From: a virus
IMG/VR virus record: IMGVR_UViG_3300025655_000024
Coordinates: 16,180-80,179 of that record
Strand: one strand, 5' to 3'
Length of the DNA: 64,000 nucleotides
Shown here one piece after another: positions 55,786 to 59,452 of this stretch. The notes below the pieces were generated by a model. The model searched no databases. It saw nothing but the letters and a program-made list of their open reading frames with translations, and was not told the DNA's origin. The translations under genes and the position numbers were made by a program. Positions within the stretch are counted from its first letter, which is position 1; each line of letters opens with the position of its first letter.

Positions 55786-55989
55786 TCATTTATTTGGTTG
55801 CCGATGATGATAGCAATATCCATTATGGATAGCCTCTTTGCGACACGGCTCACCCGCCCTTGTCACGCCTTTACAACGGTCACTATCAAGGAATTCCTTT
55901 TTGACAACGACTTTTTCTTGTAGTGGTTGGGGTTTTAGAGGCTGTTCCACTTTCGGAGGTTGCCATTGACTCCTGTTCGCCTCAATACC
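55786..55989 (-). CDS. Zn-finger segment, probably a +1 frameshift extension of the upstream membrane protein
   Basis: CKGVTRAGEPC..GYCYHH. No in-frame ATG; reachable through TCC_TTT_CGG. Confidence 0.5.
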   Translation of the reverse strand, partial: GIEANRSQWQPPKVEQPLKPQPLQEKVVVKKEFLDSDRCKGVTRAGEPCRKEAIHNGYCYHHRQPNK

Positions 55990-56230
55990 GAAAGGAAGAA
56001 TACTGACGCACAGCCACCGTGAAAGTGAATAACATTCCAAAGAAAAAGCCCATGATTTGACTCGTGGACATTTCAGGGCCTTTCCACACCATAATCAAAA
56101 ATCCCACAAGAATAAATGAAATGATGAAGATCATGGTTGCACTTTCAACGAGCATTTTTTGCGGGCTTAACAGATTAACACCCGCACTCGCCCAATTGAT
56201 TTCAGCCTCTTTGTTTCGTTCTTCCGTCAT
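55982..56230 (-). CDS. Small two-TM membrane protein (holin-like topology)
   Basis: Two hydrophobic helices; GAGGTG SD. Confidence 0.7.
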   Translation of the reverse strand: MTEERNKEAEINWASAGVNLLSPQKMLVESATMIFIISFILVGFLIMVWKGPEMSTSQIMGFFFGMLFTFTVAVRQYSSFRY

Positions 56231-56240
56231 TTGTCACACC

Positions 56241-56894
56241 TCACAAAAGTGCCGTTCCACCGATGGCCGCACCTGTTTTCATCATGTTGCCCATACCACC
56301 TTGTTGTTGGACTTGATTACCAAGCATACCACCAAGAAGGCTTCCAAAGAAGCCGGGTTGATTCTGTTGCATCATCCCGCCTCCTTGTTGATGAGCCATG
56401 AGGAACATTTGCATTTGCTGTTGATTTTGATTGAGGATTTGCTGTGCTTGGGATTGAACCTTTTGAAGCGTCAAAGCCAAATTTTCACTTGAAAGGGTTT
56501 GTAATTGGGAAGGCATTGTTCCCGCATCCAATTTGATAGCATCACCTTCTTGTTTGAAATTGACACCTGAAAAGAAGTCTTTCATGCACATAAGCATGAT
56601 TTCACCCATCAATTCCATAAGCAAAGGCAAATTTTGCGAAACAATGAACATTGACATTGGGTCATACATTTGAAGCAATTTTGAAGTGGCTATTACAGGG
56701 TCGTTTGCCGCCTGTTGCATTATTGGATTTTGGGATTGCATCATCATCATGGTTGGATCCATGCCGTAGCCACCCATGCCGTAGCCACCCATGCCCATGT
56801 TGCCCATGCCCATGCCCATCATGTTAGACTGTCCCATTTGTCCACCACCAAAAGTGGTTGTGCTATCCGTTTTATTTCCTCCAAACAATCCCAT
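56241..56894 (-). CDS. Gly/Met/Gln-rich protein with glycine-zipper-like C-terminus
   Basis: GMGMG/GGYGM repeats; GFFGSLLGGMLG..GAAIGG; AGGTGA SD. Confidence 0.7.
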   Translation of the reverse strand: MGLFGGNKTDSTTTFGGGQMGQSNMMGMGMGNMGMGGYGMGGYGMDPTMMMMQSQNPIMQQAANDPVIATSKLLQMYDPMSMFIVSQNLPLLMELMGEIMLMCMKDFFSGVNFKQEGDAIKLDAGTMPSQLQTLSSENLALTLQKVQSQAQQILNQNQQQMQMFLMAHQQGGGMMQQNQPGFFGSLLGGMLGNQVQQQGGMGNMMKTGAAIGGTALL

Positions 56895-56902
56895 GTTATC
56901 AC

Positions 56903-57805
56903 CTATTGTGCGATTTGTTCCTGCATCATTGTGGTATTCACTTGTTGTGGCGTGATGCCCACCATTTGCTGTTGTTGAGCCATTTGTTCCATTTGTAAGG
57001 CTCGCAAATCAAAAGTCACCGTCACCAAATCCGCTACACCCGAAACGGGGTTAGGGTGTTGGGTCAAAGTCACTCCCTTTGAATGTTGTGCGTCTTGTTG
57101 AATCATGTTGAAAAATTCAGCGTATTTTAACAATGATTCGGGCGTTGAACGGTTTTGTGCTTTAGCCGACCCCGAAAAGCCCGGCACGCGCATGAAGCGC
57201 GTTCCCTTTGATACCTTTGAGAATCCTTCTTGTTCAAGAGTGTGTTCTTCAATCATGCACCGAAGGGTATGGTAAATGTGCAAATGTGCGGGACAAAGCG
57301 TGCTTGACATTTCATCCCCGTGATCGCCATGTGTGCGTGCATGAGGCTTTCGTGCTTGTTGAGTGTCCTCATCAAACCAATAAATGTCAGCCAACGACAA
57401 TCCTGTGCGCTCATCGTTAATGTGGTGATAAGCATTATCGCCCTCAAGGAAACGCCTCACATCCACACCACAACAGGCACACTCGTGTGCCGCATTGTAG
57501 CGATATACCTTGAATAAACCCAAATTGTAATTCGGTGGTCGGAGAGCCTTGCGAAGCATTTTGATGTTTTTCTTTCGTGCCTTTGCAGGATTTTTGGGGT
57601 TGGTAATCAATTTGATTTCAACCGTGGGGATGACAATTTCTTGATCCATACCCGCACCCTGTGACCCTGACGAAGCCATTTCAGCCCGTTGCTGTGCCTT
57701 GAGGAATTCAAAGGCGATTCCTGTTTGGGATGAAAGGGTTTTCAAATCGGCATCCGATAAGCCGTTGAGCGACATTCCGCCACGAGCGAATGGGTTCATA
57801 CGCAT
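56903..57805 (-). CDS. Metal-binding hypothetical protein
   Basis: CACCG, HGDH, LCPAH; GGAGG SD before ATG 57805. Confidence 0.65.
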   Translation of the reverse strand: MRMNPFARGGMSLNGLSDADLKTLSSQTGIAFEFLKAQQRAEMASSGSQGAGMDQEIVIPTVEIKLITNPKNPAKARKKNIKMLRKALRPPNYNLGLFKVYRYNAAHECACCGVDVRRFLEGDNAYHHINDERTGLSLADIYWFDEDTQQARKPHARTHGDHGDEMSSTLCPAHLHIYHTLRCMIEEHTLEQEGFSKVSKGTRFMRVPGFSGSAKAQNRSTPESLLKYAEFFNMIQQDAQHSKGVTLTQHPNPVSGVADLVTVTFDLRALQMEQMAQQQQMVGITPQQVNTTMMQEQIAQ

Positions 57806-57857
57806 AGACTCCCTCCGAACCATGTGAGTCCTAACACATTCAAAATGGTTTCCCCCC

Positions 57858-58586
57858 TCATAACATTTGAACCGTGTCATAAATAGCACGCTCAACATTC
57901 AATCCATATTGGGCTGACATAGCCTCAACATTCGTAGCGATTCCCGCTTTACGCAAACGCCTCATTTCCTCTTGAAAAGGCAACACCAAAGGGTGTTGTC
58001 GCTTCATGCCTTCATCCCACATCCTTTGAGAATCAACATCCCACCACAAATCCATTTTGTTCATCAACAAACAGACGACTTTTGGTTTGAAAATTTTCGC
58101 CTTTTTCTTCAAATAACGATTGAAAGACTTTGGGAATTTCGTGTTAGTCATAATGTCCACAAGGTATTTCAAACCCCCAACGGCTTCTCCCAACAGGTAT
58201 TGGGATTGTAGGATTCGGTGATCAACGACATAGAAAACAATGCTGATATTCCGCCCAACCATGTCCTCAGCCCACATATTCCAATAGCGTGCTTGACCGC
58301 CAAAATCAGCGGTTGAAATGGGAATTTTTTCACCATTCCATCTCACCTGTTTTTTTGTTGTGTGAGGCATGGTGAATTGCCCATGCTTCATGGCGTGTGT
58401 TGTGCGGAGTGCTAACGGTATCGGCTCAATGTCGCCCGGCACTGTGAGGTATTGGTCTAAAGTCGTTTTACCCGACATAGATGGGCCATAAACCCCAAAT
58501 TTGTGGGGTTTTAGGATTCTGTAAATGTATGATCCCAATTGGGCTGAACCAAGCAACAGATGCCCAACAAACATCCACGATGACAT
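57858..58586 (-). CDS. Ras-superfamily small GTPase (Arf/Sar1/Roc-like)
   Basis: G1 GPSMSGKTT, G3 DFGGQ, FYVVD, G4 NKMD, G5 SAQ; hydrophobic N-terminal helix. Confidence 0.88.
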   Translation of the reverse strand: MSSWMFVGHLLLGSAQLGSYIYRILKPHKFGVYGPSMSGKTTLDQYLTVPGDIEPIPLALRTTHAMKHGQFTMPHTTKKQVRWNGEKIPISTADFGGQARYWNMWAEDMVGRNISIVFYVVDHRILQSQYLLGEAVGGLKYLVDIMTNTKFPKSFNRYLKKKAKIFKPKVVCLLMNKMDLWWDVDSQRMWDEGMKRQHPLVLPFQEEMRRLRKAGIATNVEAMSAQYGLNVERAIYDTVQML

Positions 58587-58591
58587 TCAAA

Positions 58592-58816
58592 TCACGCACC
58601 AAACATCCATTCCCATACGGATGTTGGTGTGATTTGCCAAAACGCATCAAGTCCGACCATTACAAGAAACGAAAGCGAAGCACCAACCAAGAAGGCGAGA
58701 ATTGCTTTGATTGTCCAAGTCATGCGCTCAAGCCTTCGCTCATAGGCGTTTTCAGCGAGGATGTTCGCCATCGCTTCCGCCTGTCTTTCTTGTTGCGTGT
58801 TAAACGGCCAAGCCAT
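58592..58816 (-). CDS. Small single-TM membrane protein
   Basis: AILAFLVGASLSFLVMVGL helix. Confidence 0.7.
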   Translation of the reverse strand: MAWPFNTQQERQAEAMANILAENAYERRLERMTWTIKAILAFLVGASLSFLVMVGLDAFWQITPTSVWEWMFGA

Positions 58817-58829
58817 GACAATGCCTCAG

Positions 58830-59273
58830 TTATTGGTGTTCGGGTTCTTTTTTGGACTCTTCGGTTTGAACAGGAACGGTAAATGTGGTTGATTGCTGTT
58901 GTCCGTAATTGCCGTTGTAAAAATCTTGGTTGTTTGAATACTTCCGCATTCTTCGTGCTTGAAGGCGAGCCTGTTGCGTTTGCCACTTATCGTAGCGGGA
59001 TTCTTGAGCGAATTCCGCACGCATAGCGAGGCTATCACGAAGCCCACCCACATGAAACAGCACCATTGACAAACATAGGAAACCGAAACAAATCAAACCG
59101 AATTGAAGGCCCAATTCGCCCGCACTCGCATCAGGCAAATACCACCCCAAGTGTGATACTCCAACAGCAGTGCCGACCAACAATGATTGCCACAGCAACA
59201 TGGCAATCAAGTTAATGTCAATTCGGTTTTCATCCATCGCCCAAGGCGGAACAGGTGGTTTCATTTCTTGCAT
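58830..59273 (-). CDS. Two-TM membrane protein with polar tail
   Basis: Two hydrophobic helices; GGAGG SD. Confidence 0.7.
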   Translation of the reverse strand: MQEMKPPVPPWAMDENRIDINLIAMLLWQSLLVGTAVGVSHLGWYLPDASAGELGLQFGLICFGFLCLSMVLFHVGGLRDSLAMRAEFAQESRYDKWQTQQARLQARRMRKYSNNQDFYNGNYGQQQSTTFTVPVQTEESKKEPEHQ

Positions 59274-59275
59274 TG

Positions 59276-59416
59276 TTAATCATCCTCCTTCTTTTGTTTG
59301 TTGAAATACTCGCTAATGATGTGATTGATGAACGAGGATTTTGACTCGCGCCCCCTTGCAGCCTCCATTTTAGCAAATAAATCATCGCTCATCACGACTG
59401 ATACATGACGGCTCAT
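59276..59416 (-). CDS. Ribbon-helix-helix (CopG-like) regulator, absent from the ORF track
   Basis: Hand translation: MSRHVSVVMSDDLFAKMEAARGRESKSSFINHIISEYFNKQKKEDD. Confidence 0.75.
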   Translation of the reverse strand: MSRHVSVVMSDDLFAKMEAARGRESKSSFINHIISEYFNKQKKEDD

Positions 59417-59439
59417 GTGTGCTTGTCAAGAATGAGAAG

Positions 59440-59452
59440 CATATCAAGGTTG
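59440..59452 (-). promoter_or_regulatory. Putative promoter of the RHH/GTPase operon
   Basis: TTGATATG about 24 nt upstream of ATG 59416. Confidence 0.4.

Follow-up and report, generated by a model that had tools for sequence, protein, structure and literature searches.

A conserved magrovirus gene block encoding a divergent small GTPase whose nearest known kin is the Arf family

The gene block and its setting

IMG/VR virus record IMGVR_UViG_3300025655_000024 carries a compact block of genes built around a very divergent small GTPase. The record is 80,179 bases long, with an estimated completeness of 76%, and its terminal 64 kb (positions 16,180 to 80,179, here called the window) were analyzed. 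Nearly all long open reading frames (ORFs) of the window lie on the minus strand, and they include genes for a portal protein, a large terminase and a prohead protease, which therefore identify a tailed virus. The window belongs to a magrovirus, and magroviruses are tailed viruses infecting Poseidoniales (Marine Group II archaea). On the minus strand, from 59455 down to 55786, a 39-nucleotide (nt) intergenic spacer is followed by genes for a ribbon-helix-helix (RHH)-like protein, a membrane protein with two transmembrane (TM) helices, a single-TM protein, the GTPase, a Cys/His protein, a Gly/Met/Gln-rich protein and a small two-TM protein, and by a Zn-finger ORF. Apart from the Zn-finger ORF, these are the genes, in the same order, of a preliminary description made from the letters alone, which had read them as a self-contained operon with its own promoter-like box, encoding an Arf/Sar1-like GTPase in a membrane-remodelling system. 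The block occupies the junction between an upstream cluster of presumably non-structural genes and the packaging and head genes, which come on the same strand after a downstream gene for a protein with Zn-ribbon-like motifs and a weak helix-turn-helix (HTH). Its main features are listed below, with protein lengths in amino acids (aa); the counts are of tblastn matches of window proteins among 61 IMG/VR loci that were fetched via the GTPase.

59424..59455, minus strand: conserved promoter/operator-like element; TATA-like TTGATAT, some 27-33 nt ahead of the ATG, followed by TCTCA-N4-TGACA; 25 upstream regions aligned
59276..59416, minus strand: 46-aa RHH-like putative DNA-binding protein, first gene of the block; 51/61 loci
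58830..59273, minus strand: 147-aa membrane protein, TM helices 20-40 and 53-79 by hydropathy, charged Gln-rich C-terminal tail; 52/61 loci
58592..58816, minus strand: 74-aa single-pass membrane protein, TM helix 33-60 by hydropathy, charged N-terminus; 53/61 loci
57858..58586, minus strand: divergent small GTPase, Arf-like, 242 aa, hydrophobic helix at the N-terminus (residues 3-25), from motifs, profile and model
56903..57805, minus strand: Cys/His protein of about 298-300 aa, obligate neighbour of the GTPase; 61/61 GTPase loci
56241..56894, minus strand: 217-aa Gly/Met/Gln-rich protein; 56/61 loci
55982..56230, minus strand: 82-aa two-TM membrane protein, helices at about 30-49 and 57-74; 52/61 loci

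Conservation of the block across viral loci

The listed genes recur together, as do two proteins encoded downstream, the Zn-ribbon/HTH protein (60 of the 61 loci) and a 147-aa protein (52 of the 61); genes upstream of the block are conserved in only 11-15 loci. The block is colinear, with the same order and spacing, in about 50 viral loci, and a six-gene core persists at 33-38% identity. In the most divergent groups, whose GTPases are 36-39% identical, the small proteins are beyond sequence detection, and reading of the ORFs shows an unchanged layout: a TM protein of 177-230 aa, a single-TM protein of 78-95 aa, the GTPase, the Cys/His protein, a Gly/Met/Gln-rich protein and a two-TM protein of 77-90 aa. 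Position by position, the place of the two-TM gene is taken by a TM protein of 143-230 aa in all 24 loci examined by features, that of the single-TM gene by a 73-95-aa ORF, mostly with one TM helix, in most divergent lineages too, and that of the small two-TM gene by a 77-90-aa protein with two TM helices in nearly all lineages. The Gly/Met/Gln-rich protein retains its position and composition in divergent lineages.

The tightest association is between the GTPase and the Cys/His protein. When 79 loci were fetched via the Cys/His protein, the GTPase was found upstream on the same strand in 76, the other three being cut by the contig end, so the pair co-occurs in 61/61 loci in one direction and in 76/76 testable loci in the other. 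On the synteny of the 61 loci and this reverse test, the neighbours are co-conserved with the GTPase, as the preliminary description had supposed. The gap between the two genes is -39 to +54 nt in most of the 76 loci and 170-1057 nt in five of those printed. Seven loci (L046, L149, L133 and L150-L153) have the two genes separated by between one and three additional small ORFs (54-164 aa; one of these has two TM helices), so the pair is not always translationally coupled.

A virus-specific GTPase family nearest to Arf

The GTPase contains GPSMSGKTT (G1), DFGGQ with a tryptophan seven residues on (G3/switch II), FYVVDHR, NKMD (G4) and SAQ (G5); its switch II signature reads DFGGQARYWNMW and is followed by FYVVDHR. 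Among 17 sequences, down to 29% identity, the invariant residues are G34, G39-K40-T41-T42, D94, G97, W105, R112, D122, R124, N176-K177 and D179. The G1, G3 and G4 motifs that had been called intact are thus invariant, and the Arf-like DxGGQ...W...FYVVD layout holds with W105, D122 and R124 unchanged throughout; G5 is present in the window protein and is variable in the family (SAQ/SAK/ATR). The Gln after DxxG is not conserved (Q/E/D/H). A P-loop of the form GxxxxGK[ST], DxxG, [NT]KxD and a Ras-like alpha/beta G-domain fold place the protein in the Ras superfamily (TRAFAC class), and its DxGGQ with conserved Trp, followed by [IV]VDxxxR after beta-4, matches the switch II pattern of the Arf family, with the Gln itself varying in the viral family. 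We take the switch II residues to correspond to those in Arf1 numbering; relative to Arf1, the viral protein presumably inserts about 17 residues in switch I and about 15 residues between G4 and G5.

All Pfam matches of the window GTPase are sub-threshold (Gtr1_RagA E 8e-4, Ras 0.04, Roc 0.06, Arf 0.28), and its score against Arf (PF00025) is 11.1 bits versus a cut-off of 22.3. Across 41 family members, Arf is matched in 31 (best E 1.3e-4, never above the cut-off), Ras in 23, Roc in 20 and SRPRB in 7. A profile of the family searched against the Protein Data Bank (PDB) matched best GerdArfR1, 8OUN (E 2.4e-6), then Arl8, Arl10, Arl6 and Arf1; 8OUN and 8OUM derive from the ArfR preprint (bioRxiv 10.1101/2024.02.28.582541).

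The AlphaFold2 (AF2) model has a predicted local distance difference test score (pLDDT) of 75.5, with most of the G-domain core above 85. Foldseek returned at least 500 small-GTPase matches at E <= 1e-3, the best near 1e-7, from small GTPases in general. With VIA-align, the top 20 chains all belong to the Arf family (Arl1, Arf6, Arl3, Arl8b, Arl6, Arf1 and GerdArfR1) at Z 16.5-18.2, 18 of them at root-mean-square deviations of 2.2-2.7 Å over 152-168 residues; Rag at about 16 and Rab5 at about 15.7 make the lead of Arf a modest one. Identity to solved Arf proteins is about 17-23%.

An exhaustive profile search of 1.84 billion representatives retrieved 83 proteins only. The full-length matches whose clusters were looked up sit on contigs of about 60-104 kb that represent other magrovirus lineages. 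Four metagenomic proteins from short contigs (P0166, P0176, P0177 and P0180) are hit by the viral profile and, in addition, exceed the Pfam Arf cut-off; by sequence, they bridge the viral family to Arf-like proteins. A 2180-aa protein from the same search (P0117) was rejected as a repeat-driven false positive. A search for longer or fused forms of the GTPase found none, which is weak evidence, and tblastn against a phage collection, which may lack magrovirus records, gave no match.

The protein represents a genuine, very divergent and new virus-specific family of the Ras superfamily, with Arf as its nearest known kin when judged by sequence profile, motif layout and predicted structure. The Arf/Sar1 label of the preliminary description therefore stands as a statement of kinship, on the 8OUN match, the Pfam votes and the VIA-align ranking, but not as formal membership, the score being below the curated Arf threshold. 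Three family members (P0065, P0081 and P0205) bear the automatic Joint Genome Institute (JGI) annotation 'GTPase SAR1 family protein', so the G domain had already been noticed by annotation pipelines.

An archaeal GTPase of special relevance is ArvA, which acts together with ArvB and ArvC, a Zn-ribbon protein, to drive the vesiculation of membranes in Haloferax (Haloferax volcanii; PMC10927574). As ArvA sequences we used the genes adjoining ArvB in seven genomes of the host phylum. The viral profile aligned to ArvA with hhalign at 95% probability and E 3.8e-8, over 41 columns only, from G1 to switch I (GIYGP..GKTTL...IP.E.R). ArvA scores best with MMR_HSR1, and its G3 is DTPG versus DxGGQ...W in the virus. 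From these alignments, the two share a local motif and are otherwise distinct families. ArvB (OapB, PF09846, DUF2073) had no match in the viral record, with Haloferax and Methanosarcina controls positive; a survey of 151 host-order genomes did not find this marker, which 123 of 301 genomes sampled from the phylum do carry.

The N-terminal helix of the GTPase

The AF2 model places a helix at residues 3-25, at low confidence. In 41 members, the most hydrophobic 17-residue stretch of the N-terminus has a median Kyte-Doolittle value of 1.38 (range 0.81-2.20), in agreement with the hydrophobic N-terminal helix noted in the preliminary description, and the segment passes the TM threshold in some divergent lineages only. 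The helix has conserved Gly8, His9 and Ser14 and nearly no charge before Arg23. Its hydrophobic moment is 0.11 at a mean hydrophobicity of 0.77, versus a moment of 0.48, a mean hydrophobicity of 0.48 and a 17-residue hydropathy of 0.53 for the amphipathic, basic N-termini of archaeal ArvA. The amphipathic character needed for reversible, GTP-dependent membrane binding of the Arf/Sar1 type, which had been suggested for this helix, is therefore lacking. Being hydrophobic and not amphipathic, it looks like a permanent anchor, or like a helix that packs against the TM helices of a partner, unlike the reversible amphipathic helix of Arf/Sar1.

The Cys/His protein

The ORF as listed (56903-57898) is over-extended and overlaps the GTPase gene by 41 nt. 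Since the conserved protein in the homologues begins about 40-70 nt past the GTPase stop, the real start is probably the Met at 57805 or 57799, which gives a protein of about 298-300 aa. Its invariant residues are C107 and C169-P-x-H172-L-H174-x-x-H177, and because these Cys and His residues are invariant it is a probable metal-binding partner of the GTPase. No relative was found in Pfam (OapC included), PHROG, PDB sequences, Foldseek, VIA-align (best Z 4.7, which is noise) or the ESM Atlas. The structure model is middling (predicted template modelling score 0.45), so a new fold cannot be claimed for it.

The small membrane proteins and other members of the block

The 147-aa protein is holin-like in layout only, with two TM helices and a charged tail; the tails of the 74-aa and 82-aa proteins are short. 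For the 82-aa protein, the hydropathy scan yields one long segment (24-54), and the division into two helices, with the second at 57-74, is a reading of the sequence. The 74-aa protein has a weak match to XhlA (E 0.074, far under the cut-off), and the 147-aa protein has no Pfam or PHROG match. More generally, no protein of the block matches a PHROG family, and no gene of the block matches a lytic-enzyme family in Pfam or PHROG.

The Gly/Met/Gln-rich protein, for which a Pfam family match was not found, consists of a low-complexity N-terminus, a conserved central domain of about 100 aa, a PGFFGSLLGGxLGN stretch and a Gly/Ala-rich hydrophobic tail (alignment A7).

The first gene had been described as an RHH regulator. 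The beta-helix-turn-helix pattern of such a fold (strand, helix, Gly turn, helix) is kept in 40 distinct sequences, with the conserved pattern M-x-x-HVSV...RGRESKSSF, but support from hidden Markov models is weak, with an RHH_5 match in 1 of 20 members (E 0.054), and there is no match in the PDB. No RHH-like gene was seen at L055, the sole divergent locus inspected for it. At another locus (L040:5075-5290), the RHH-like protein has a 25-residue Cys-rich C-terminal extension, for a total of 72 aa.

The promoter-like element and regulation

Alignment of the 60-nt segments that precede the RHH-like gene in 25 diverse loci shows a shared ATnACAACnnTCATAAnCCTnTCA-N4-TGACA, an element of about 30 nt that ends 8-10 nt before the ATG, with invariant and near-invariant columns and the consensus ATnACAACnnTCATAAnCCTnTCAnnnnTGACA; the flanking proteins are only 42-78% identical. 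This phylogenetic footprint bears out the 'own promoter-like box' of the preliminary description. The full motif is unique within the window. From general knowledge of archaeal promoters, the placement of the TATA-like core (TTGATAT, about 27-33 nt before the RHH ATG) would fit a promoter with a near-leaderless transcript, and the conserved element may be a promoter or an operator for the RHH-like protein.

A similar arrangement lies at 63110-63200 on the minus strand, where a TATA-like CATATTAAC precedes a perfect TGACA-N4-TGACA (63146-63159), with an ATG about 40 nt further on, near 63110. This arrangement heads the gene cluster just upstream of the block, and its architecture equals that of the element before the RHH-like gene; given the resemblance, it may be another operator for the RHH-like regulator. 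In that case, the TTG start listed there at 63212 is probably over-extended. In the whole window, TNWCA-N4-TGACA occurs 12 times versus 2.3 expected, a number that none of 100 shuffles reached; most copies are inside ORFs, and the excess may be composition, not regulation.

Metatranscriptome contigs of 151-264 nt from three RNA libraries match the RHH-like, two-TM, Cys/His, Gly/Met-rich and small two-TM genes at 100% identity. Their depth is about 2-6, gaps in their coverage carry no meaning and RNA libraries can hold DNA, so we do not count them as proof of transcription or of an operon.

The downstream end of the block

Two further features lie at the 3' end:

55786..56040, minus strand: variable accessory ORF with a DUF5763 Cys/His finger (Pfam DUF5763, E 5e-10, exceeding the cut-off), overlapping the end of the two-TM gene and without an ATG; 7/61 loci
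55056..55766, minus strand: downstream neighbour, a 236-aa protein that has a weak HTH and a pair of Zn-ribbon-like CPxCxHP motifs; 60/61 loci, at a fixed offset

The accessory ORF overlaps the last 59 nt of the 82-aa two-TM gene, and in place of an in-frame ATG a GTG near 55947 is a possible start. This Zn finger is a separate gene from the holin-like one with which the preliminary description had closed its list. Nor is the operon 'self-contained' at this end: the 236-aa gene begins about 20 nt past the last stop and is itself co-conserved. Residues C10, C13, C65 and C68 of its product are invariant (alignment A6), and the protein has a weak GerE-type HTH match (E 0.022) and a weak DUF7367 match. 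Regulation late in infection and recognition of the packaging site are conceivable functions for it.

Viral and host distribution of the GTPase

A GTPase gene 49% identical to that of the window is carried on a 106-kb contig of the Poseidoniales single-cell genome AG-422-I20. The contig is probably a virus caught inside its host cell, and its presence there is consistent with Marine Group II hosts for these viruses. The same single-cell genome is without an Arf-like gene apart from the viral one, and the family profile found no homologue of the GTPase in 300 other genomes of the Poseidoniales. Recent capture from the host was rejected on these 0 matches. Another copy, 42% identical, lies on an 8-kb contig binned as a Parvibaculum metagenome-assembled genome, probably a mis-binned viral fragment.

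A proposed role and its alternatives

What stands of the first interpretation is a GTPase nearest to Arf/Sar, a set of co-conserved neighbours and a promoter-like element. The GTPase does not reach the Pfam Arf threshold, its helix is not amphipathic and the 3' end of the block is not closed. From gene content and position, we tentatively prefer the reading that the block encodes a membrane-anchored GTP switch acting on the host envelope late in infection, with a role in egress or lysis. The hydrophobic N-terminal helix would keep the GTPase at the cytoplasmic membrane, as an anchor in its own right or by packing on the neighbouring TM proteins, and the GTPase would switch a small membrane complex of the virus in a nucleotide-dependent way. 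The Cys/His protein would be its partner, as an effector or a regulator resembling a GTPase-activating protein, and the RHH-like protein would autoregulate the block through the TnnCA-N4-TGACA repeat. The task would be a late event at the host envelope, either disruption of the membrane and S-layer or exit through them, with the three small holin-like proteins as the membrane-active parts and GTP binding or hydrolysis as the gate or timer. In lambda, the S-R-Rz lysis genes are placed just before the terminase genes, and we count the position of the block at the packaging/head-gene junction for an egress role, as lambdoid phages keep their lysis genes there. A bolder form of the proposal, which we regard as doubtful, sees in the cassette the egress machine still missing for tailed archaeal viruses, an endolysin-free lysis system in which an anchored Arf-like GTPase and its Cys/His partner gate or time holin-like proteins. 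If this were true, the timing of lysis would depend on the cell's nucleotide state and not on holin concentration and membrane potential alone.

Several points weigh against this reading, in which membrane association, hydrolysis of GTP, contacts between the proteins and a lytic effect are all predictions. The term 'holin-like' refers to size and topology only, traits of many small membrane proteins, and none of the three small TM proteins has a holin-family match in Pfam or PHROG. The N-terminal helix of the GTPase falls under the standard TM score in most members, as its median shows, so even anchoring is uncertain, and the variation of the catalytic Gln means that hydrolysis may be slow or partner-dependent. 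A site beside packaging genes suits an assembly role equally well. Finally, a stretch of about 50 kb is on one strand and tightly packed, and magrovirus genomes are broadly syntenic, so the colinearity of the block may partly reflect genome conservation.

Among other explanations, the block could provide a membrane platform for replication, capsid assembly or packaging, or could drive ArvA-like vesicle budding (decoys, or reshaping of the host surface), instead of lysis. We consider this unlikely, and it draws on several parallels: the formation of vesicles by ArvA, ArvB and the Zn-ribbon ArvC in Haloferax (PMC10927574), the local similarity from G1 to switch I, and the order of GTPase then Cys/His protein, which echoes arvA-arvC. 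Given that ArvB was not found in the host-order genomes, a virus could supply a function that its host lacks, and the block also adjoins the packaging and head genes. The similarity to ArvA is limited to those 41 columns, however, G3 differs, the viral record is without ArvB and the Cys/His protein without an OapC match, and a need for vesicles or for platforms on the host membrane is not known among head-tailed viruses. An involvement in superinfection exclusion or host take-over, with a membrane complex that alters the envelope or blocks the entry of competitor DNA under regulation by the GTPase, seems distinctly less probable. Small membrane proteins behind a leading regulator are, from general knowledge, typical of phage exclusion systems, and an own RHH-like repressor with a conserved operator-like repeat is often seen in moron or immunity cassettes. 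Exclusion genes are usually variable accessories, though, whereas lineages that have diverged to 29-38% identity still keep this block as a core feature, and no lysogeny has been reported for magroviruses.

Two further explanations have, in our estimate, little chance of being correct. In one, the protein is an insertion helper resembling the beta subunit of the signal recognition particle (SRP) receptor (SR-beta), an anchored Arf-type GTPase that aids the targeting or insertion of viral membrane proteins, as at the eukaryotic endoplasmic reticulum. SR-beta is, by textbook account, an Arf-related GTPase with an N-terminal TM anchor, and the viral N-terminus is anchor-like; Pfam SRPRB gives weak matches in 7 of 41 members, and the bridging protein P0177 carries the JGI name 'signal recognition particle receptor subunit beta' and scores 26.2 bits versus a cut-off of 25. 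The Met-rich neighbour could even bind hydrophobic segments in the manner of the Met-rich SRP54 M domain, as known in general. Yet a partner resembling SR-alpha/SRX was not recognised, membrane-protein insertion in archaea proceeds without SR-beta, and the SRPRB scores of the viral family are weaker than its Arf scores. The other, of similarly low probability, takes the protein as a soluble regulatory GTPase unrelated to membranes, acting in late expression or packaging with the Cys/His and Zn-ribbon/HTH proteins and accompanied by TM proteins through synteny only. It accounts well for the tightest couplings, which are with soluble proteins (Cys/His 61/61 and 76/76, Zn-ribbon/HTH 60/61), and for a helix under the standard TM score in most members. 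It sits poorly with N-terminal 25 residues that are conserved as a hydrophobic helix, nearly uncharged in the first 20, and with TM proteins on both sides of the GTPase in nearly every lineage examined, even where they cannot be aligned.

An egress or lysis role, our preferred reading, would address a recognized gap: a review describes the players in the egress of tailed archaeal viruses as 'still completely uncharacterized' (PMC10791045). The block is a concrete, conserved and clonable six-gene set for testing how such viruses exit murein-free cells. Magroviruses belong to the most abundant surface-ocean viruses, ranked third after SAR11 phages and cyanophages (Philosof et al. 2017), and their hosts are uncultured. 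A literature search for magrovirus or Poseidoniales with GTPase returned nothing relevant, and the GTPase is not mentioned in the main texts of the magrovirus papers searched, nor in the supplements of one such paper. New here are the comparison with ArvA, the surveys of the host order, the reciprocal co-occurrence test with the Cys/His protein, the contrast between an anchor-like and an amphipathic N-terminus, and the promoter footprint.

Comparison with known systems

Giant viruses also encode members of the Ras superfamily, and the mimivirus Rab (PDB 5XC5) is among the Foldseek matches of our model. Those proteins are clear Rab orthologues derived from eukaryotic hosts, whereas the magrovirus GTPase is without a recognisable host counterpart and belongs to a tailed archaeal virus.

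Phage lysis cassettes (holin, antiholin, spanin) resemble the block in having several small proteins that span the membrane once or twice and carry charged tails, a regulator of their own and a position at the head of packaging and head genes. The magrovirus block differs in being without an endolysin, none being expected for a host without murein, and without a holin-family match. We know of no lysis cassette that contains a small GTPase.

SR-beta shares with the viral protein an Arf relationship, a hydrophobic N-terminal helix and the weak SRPRB matches noted above; it differs in its SR-alpha partner, none being recognised here, in the distance of the viral SRPRB scores, well below the cut-off, and in the viral context.

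ArvA (OapA) is likewise a small GTPase of the archaeal world with an N-terminal membrane helix, encoded beside a Cys-rich protein and implicated in membrane deformation. Its N-terminus is amphipathic and basic, unlike the viral helix, and it is cellular and vertically inherited, whereas the family described here is viral. ArvC (Zn ribbon, DUF2072) also differs from the viral Cys/His protein, which is about 300 aa long and has no OapC match.

The closest comparison is with the Arf family (Arf1, Arf6, Arl1, Arl3, Arl6, Arl8 and Sar1) and the Asgard ArfR proteins. The viral GTPase has the same GxxxxGKT, DxGGQ with Trp seven residues on, VVDxR-type and NKxD motifs, and likewise a helix ahead of the G domain. 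That helix is uniformly hydrophobic and has no Gly2, and the catalytic Gln is unconserved in the viral family. ArfR is reported only from Asgard archaea and one lineage of Korarchaeia (bioRxiv 10.1101/2024.02.28.582541), whereas the viral GTPase belongs to a virus of a host of euryarchaeal grade. It would thus represent an Arf-type GTP switch outside eukaryotes and Asgard archaea, long kept by viruses of a host order in which neither a homologue nor ArvB was found, and as such it bears on the spread of GTPase-controlled membrane machinery across the archaeal world.

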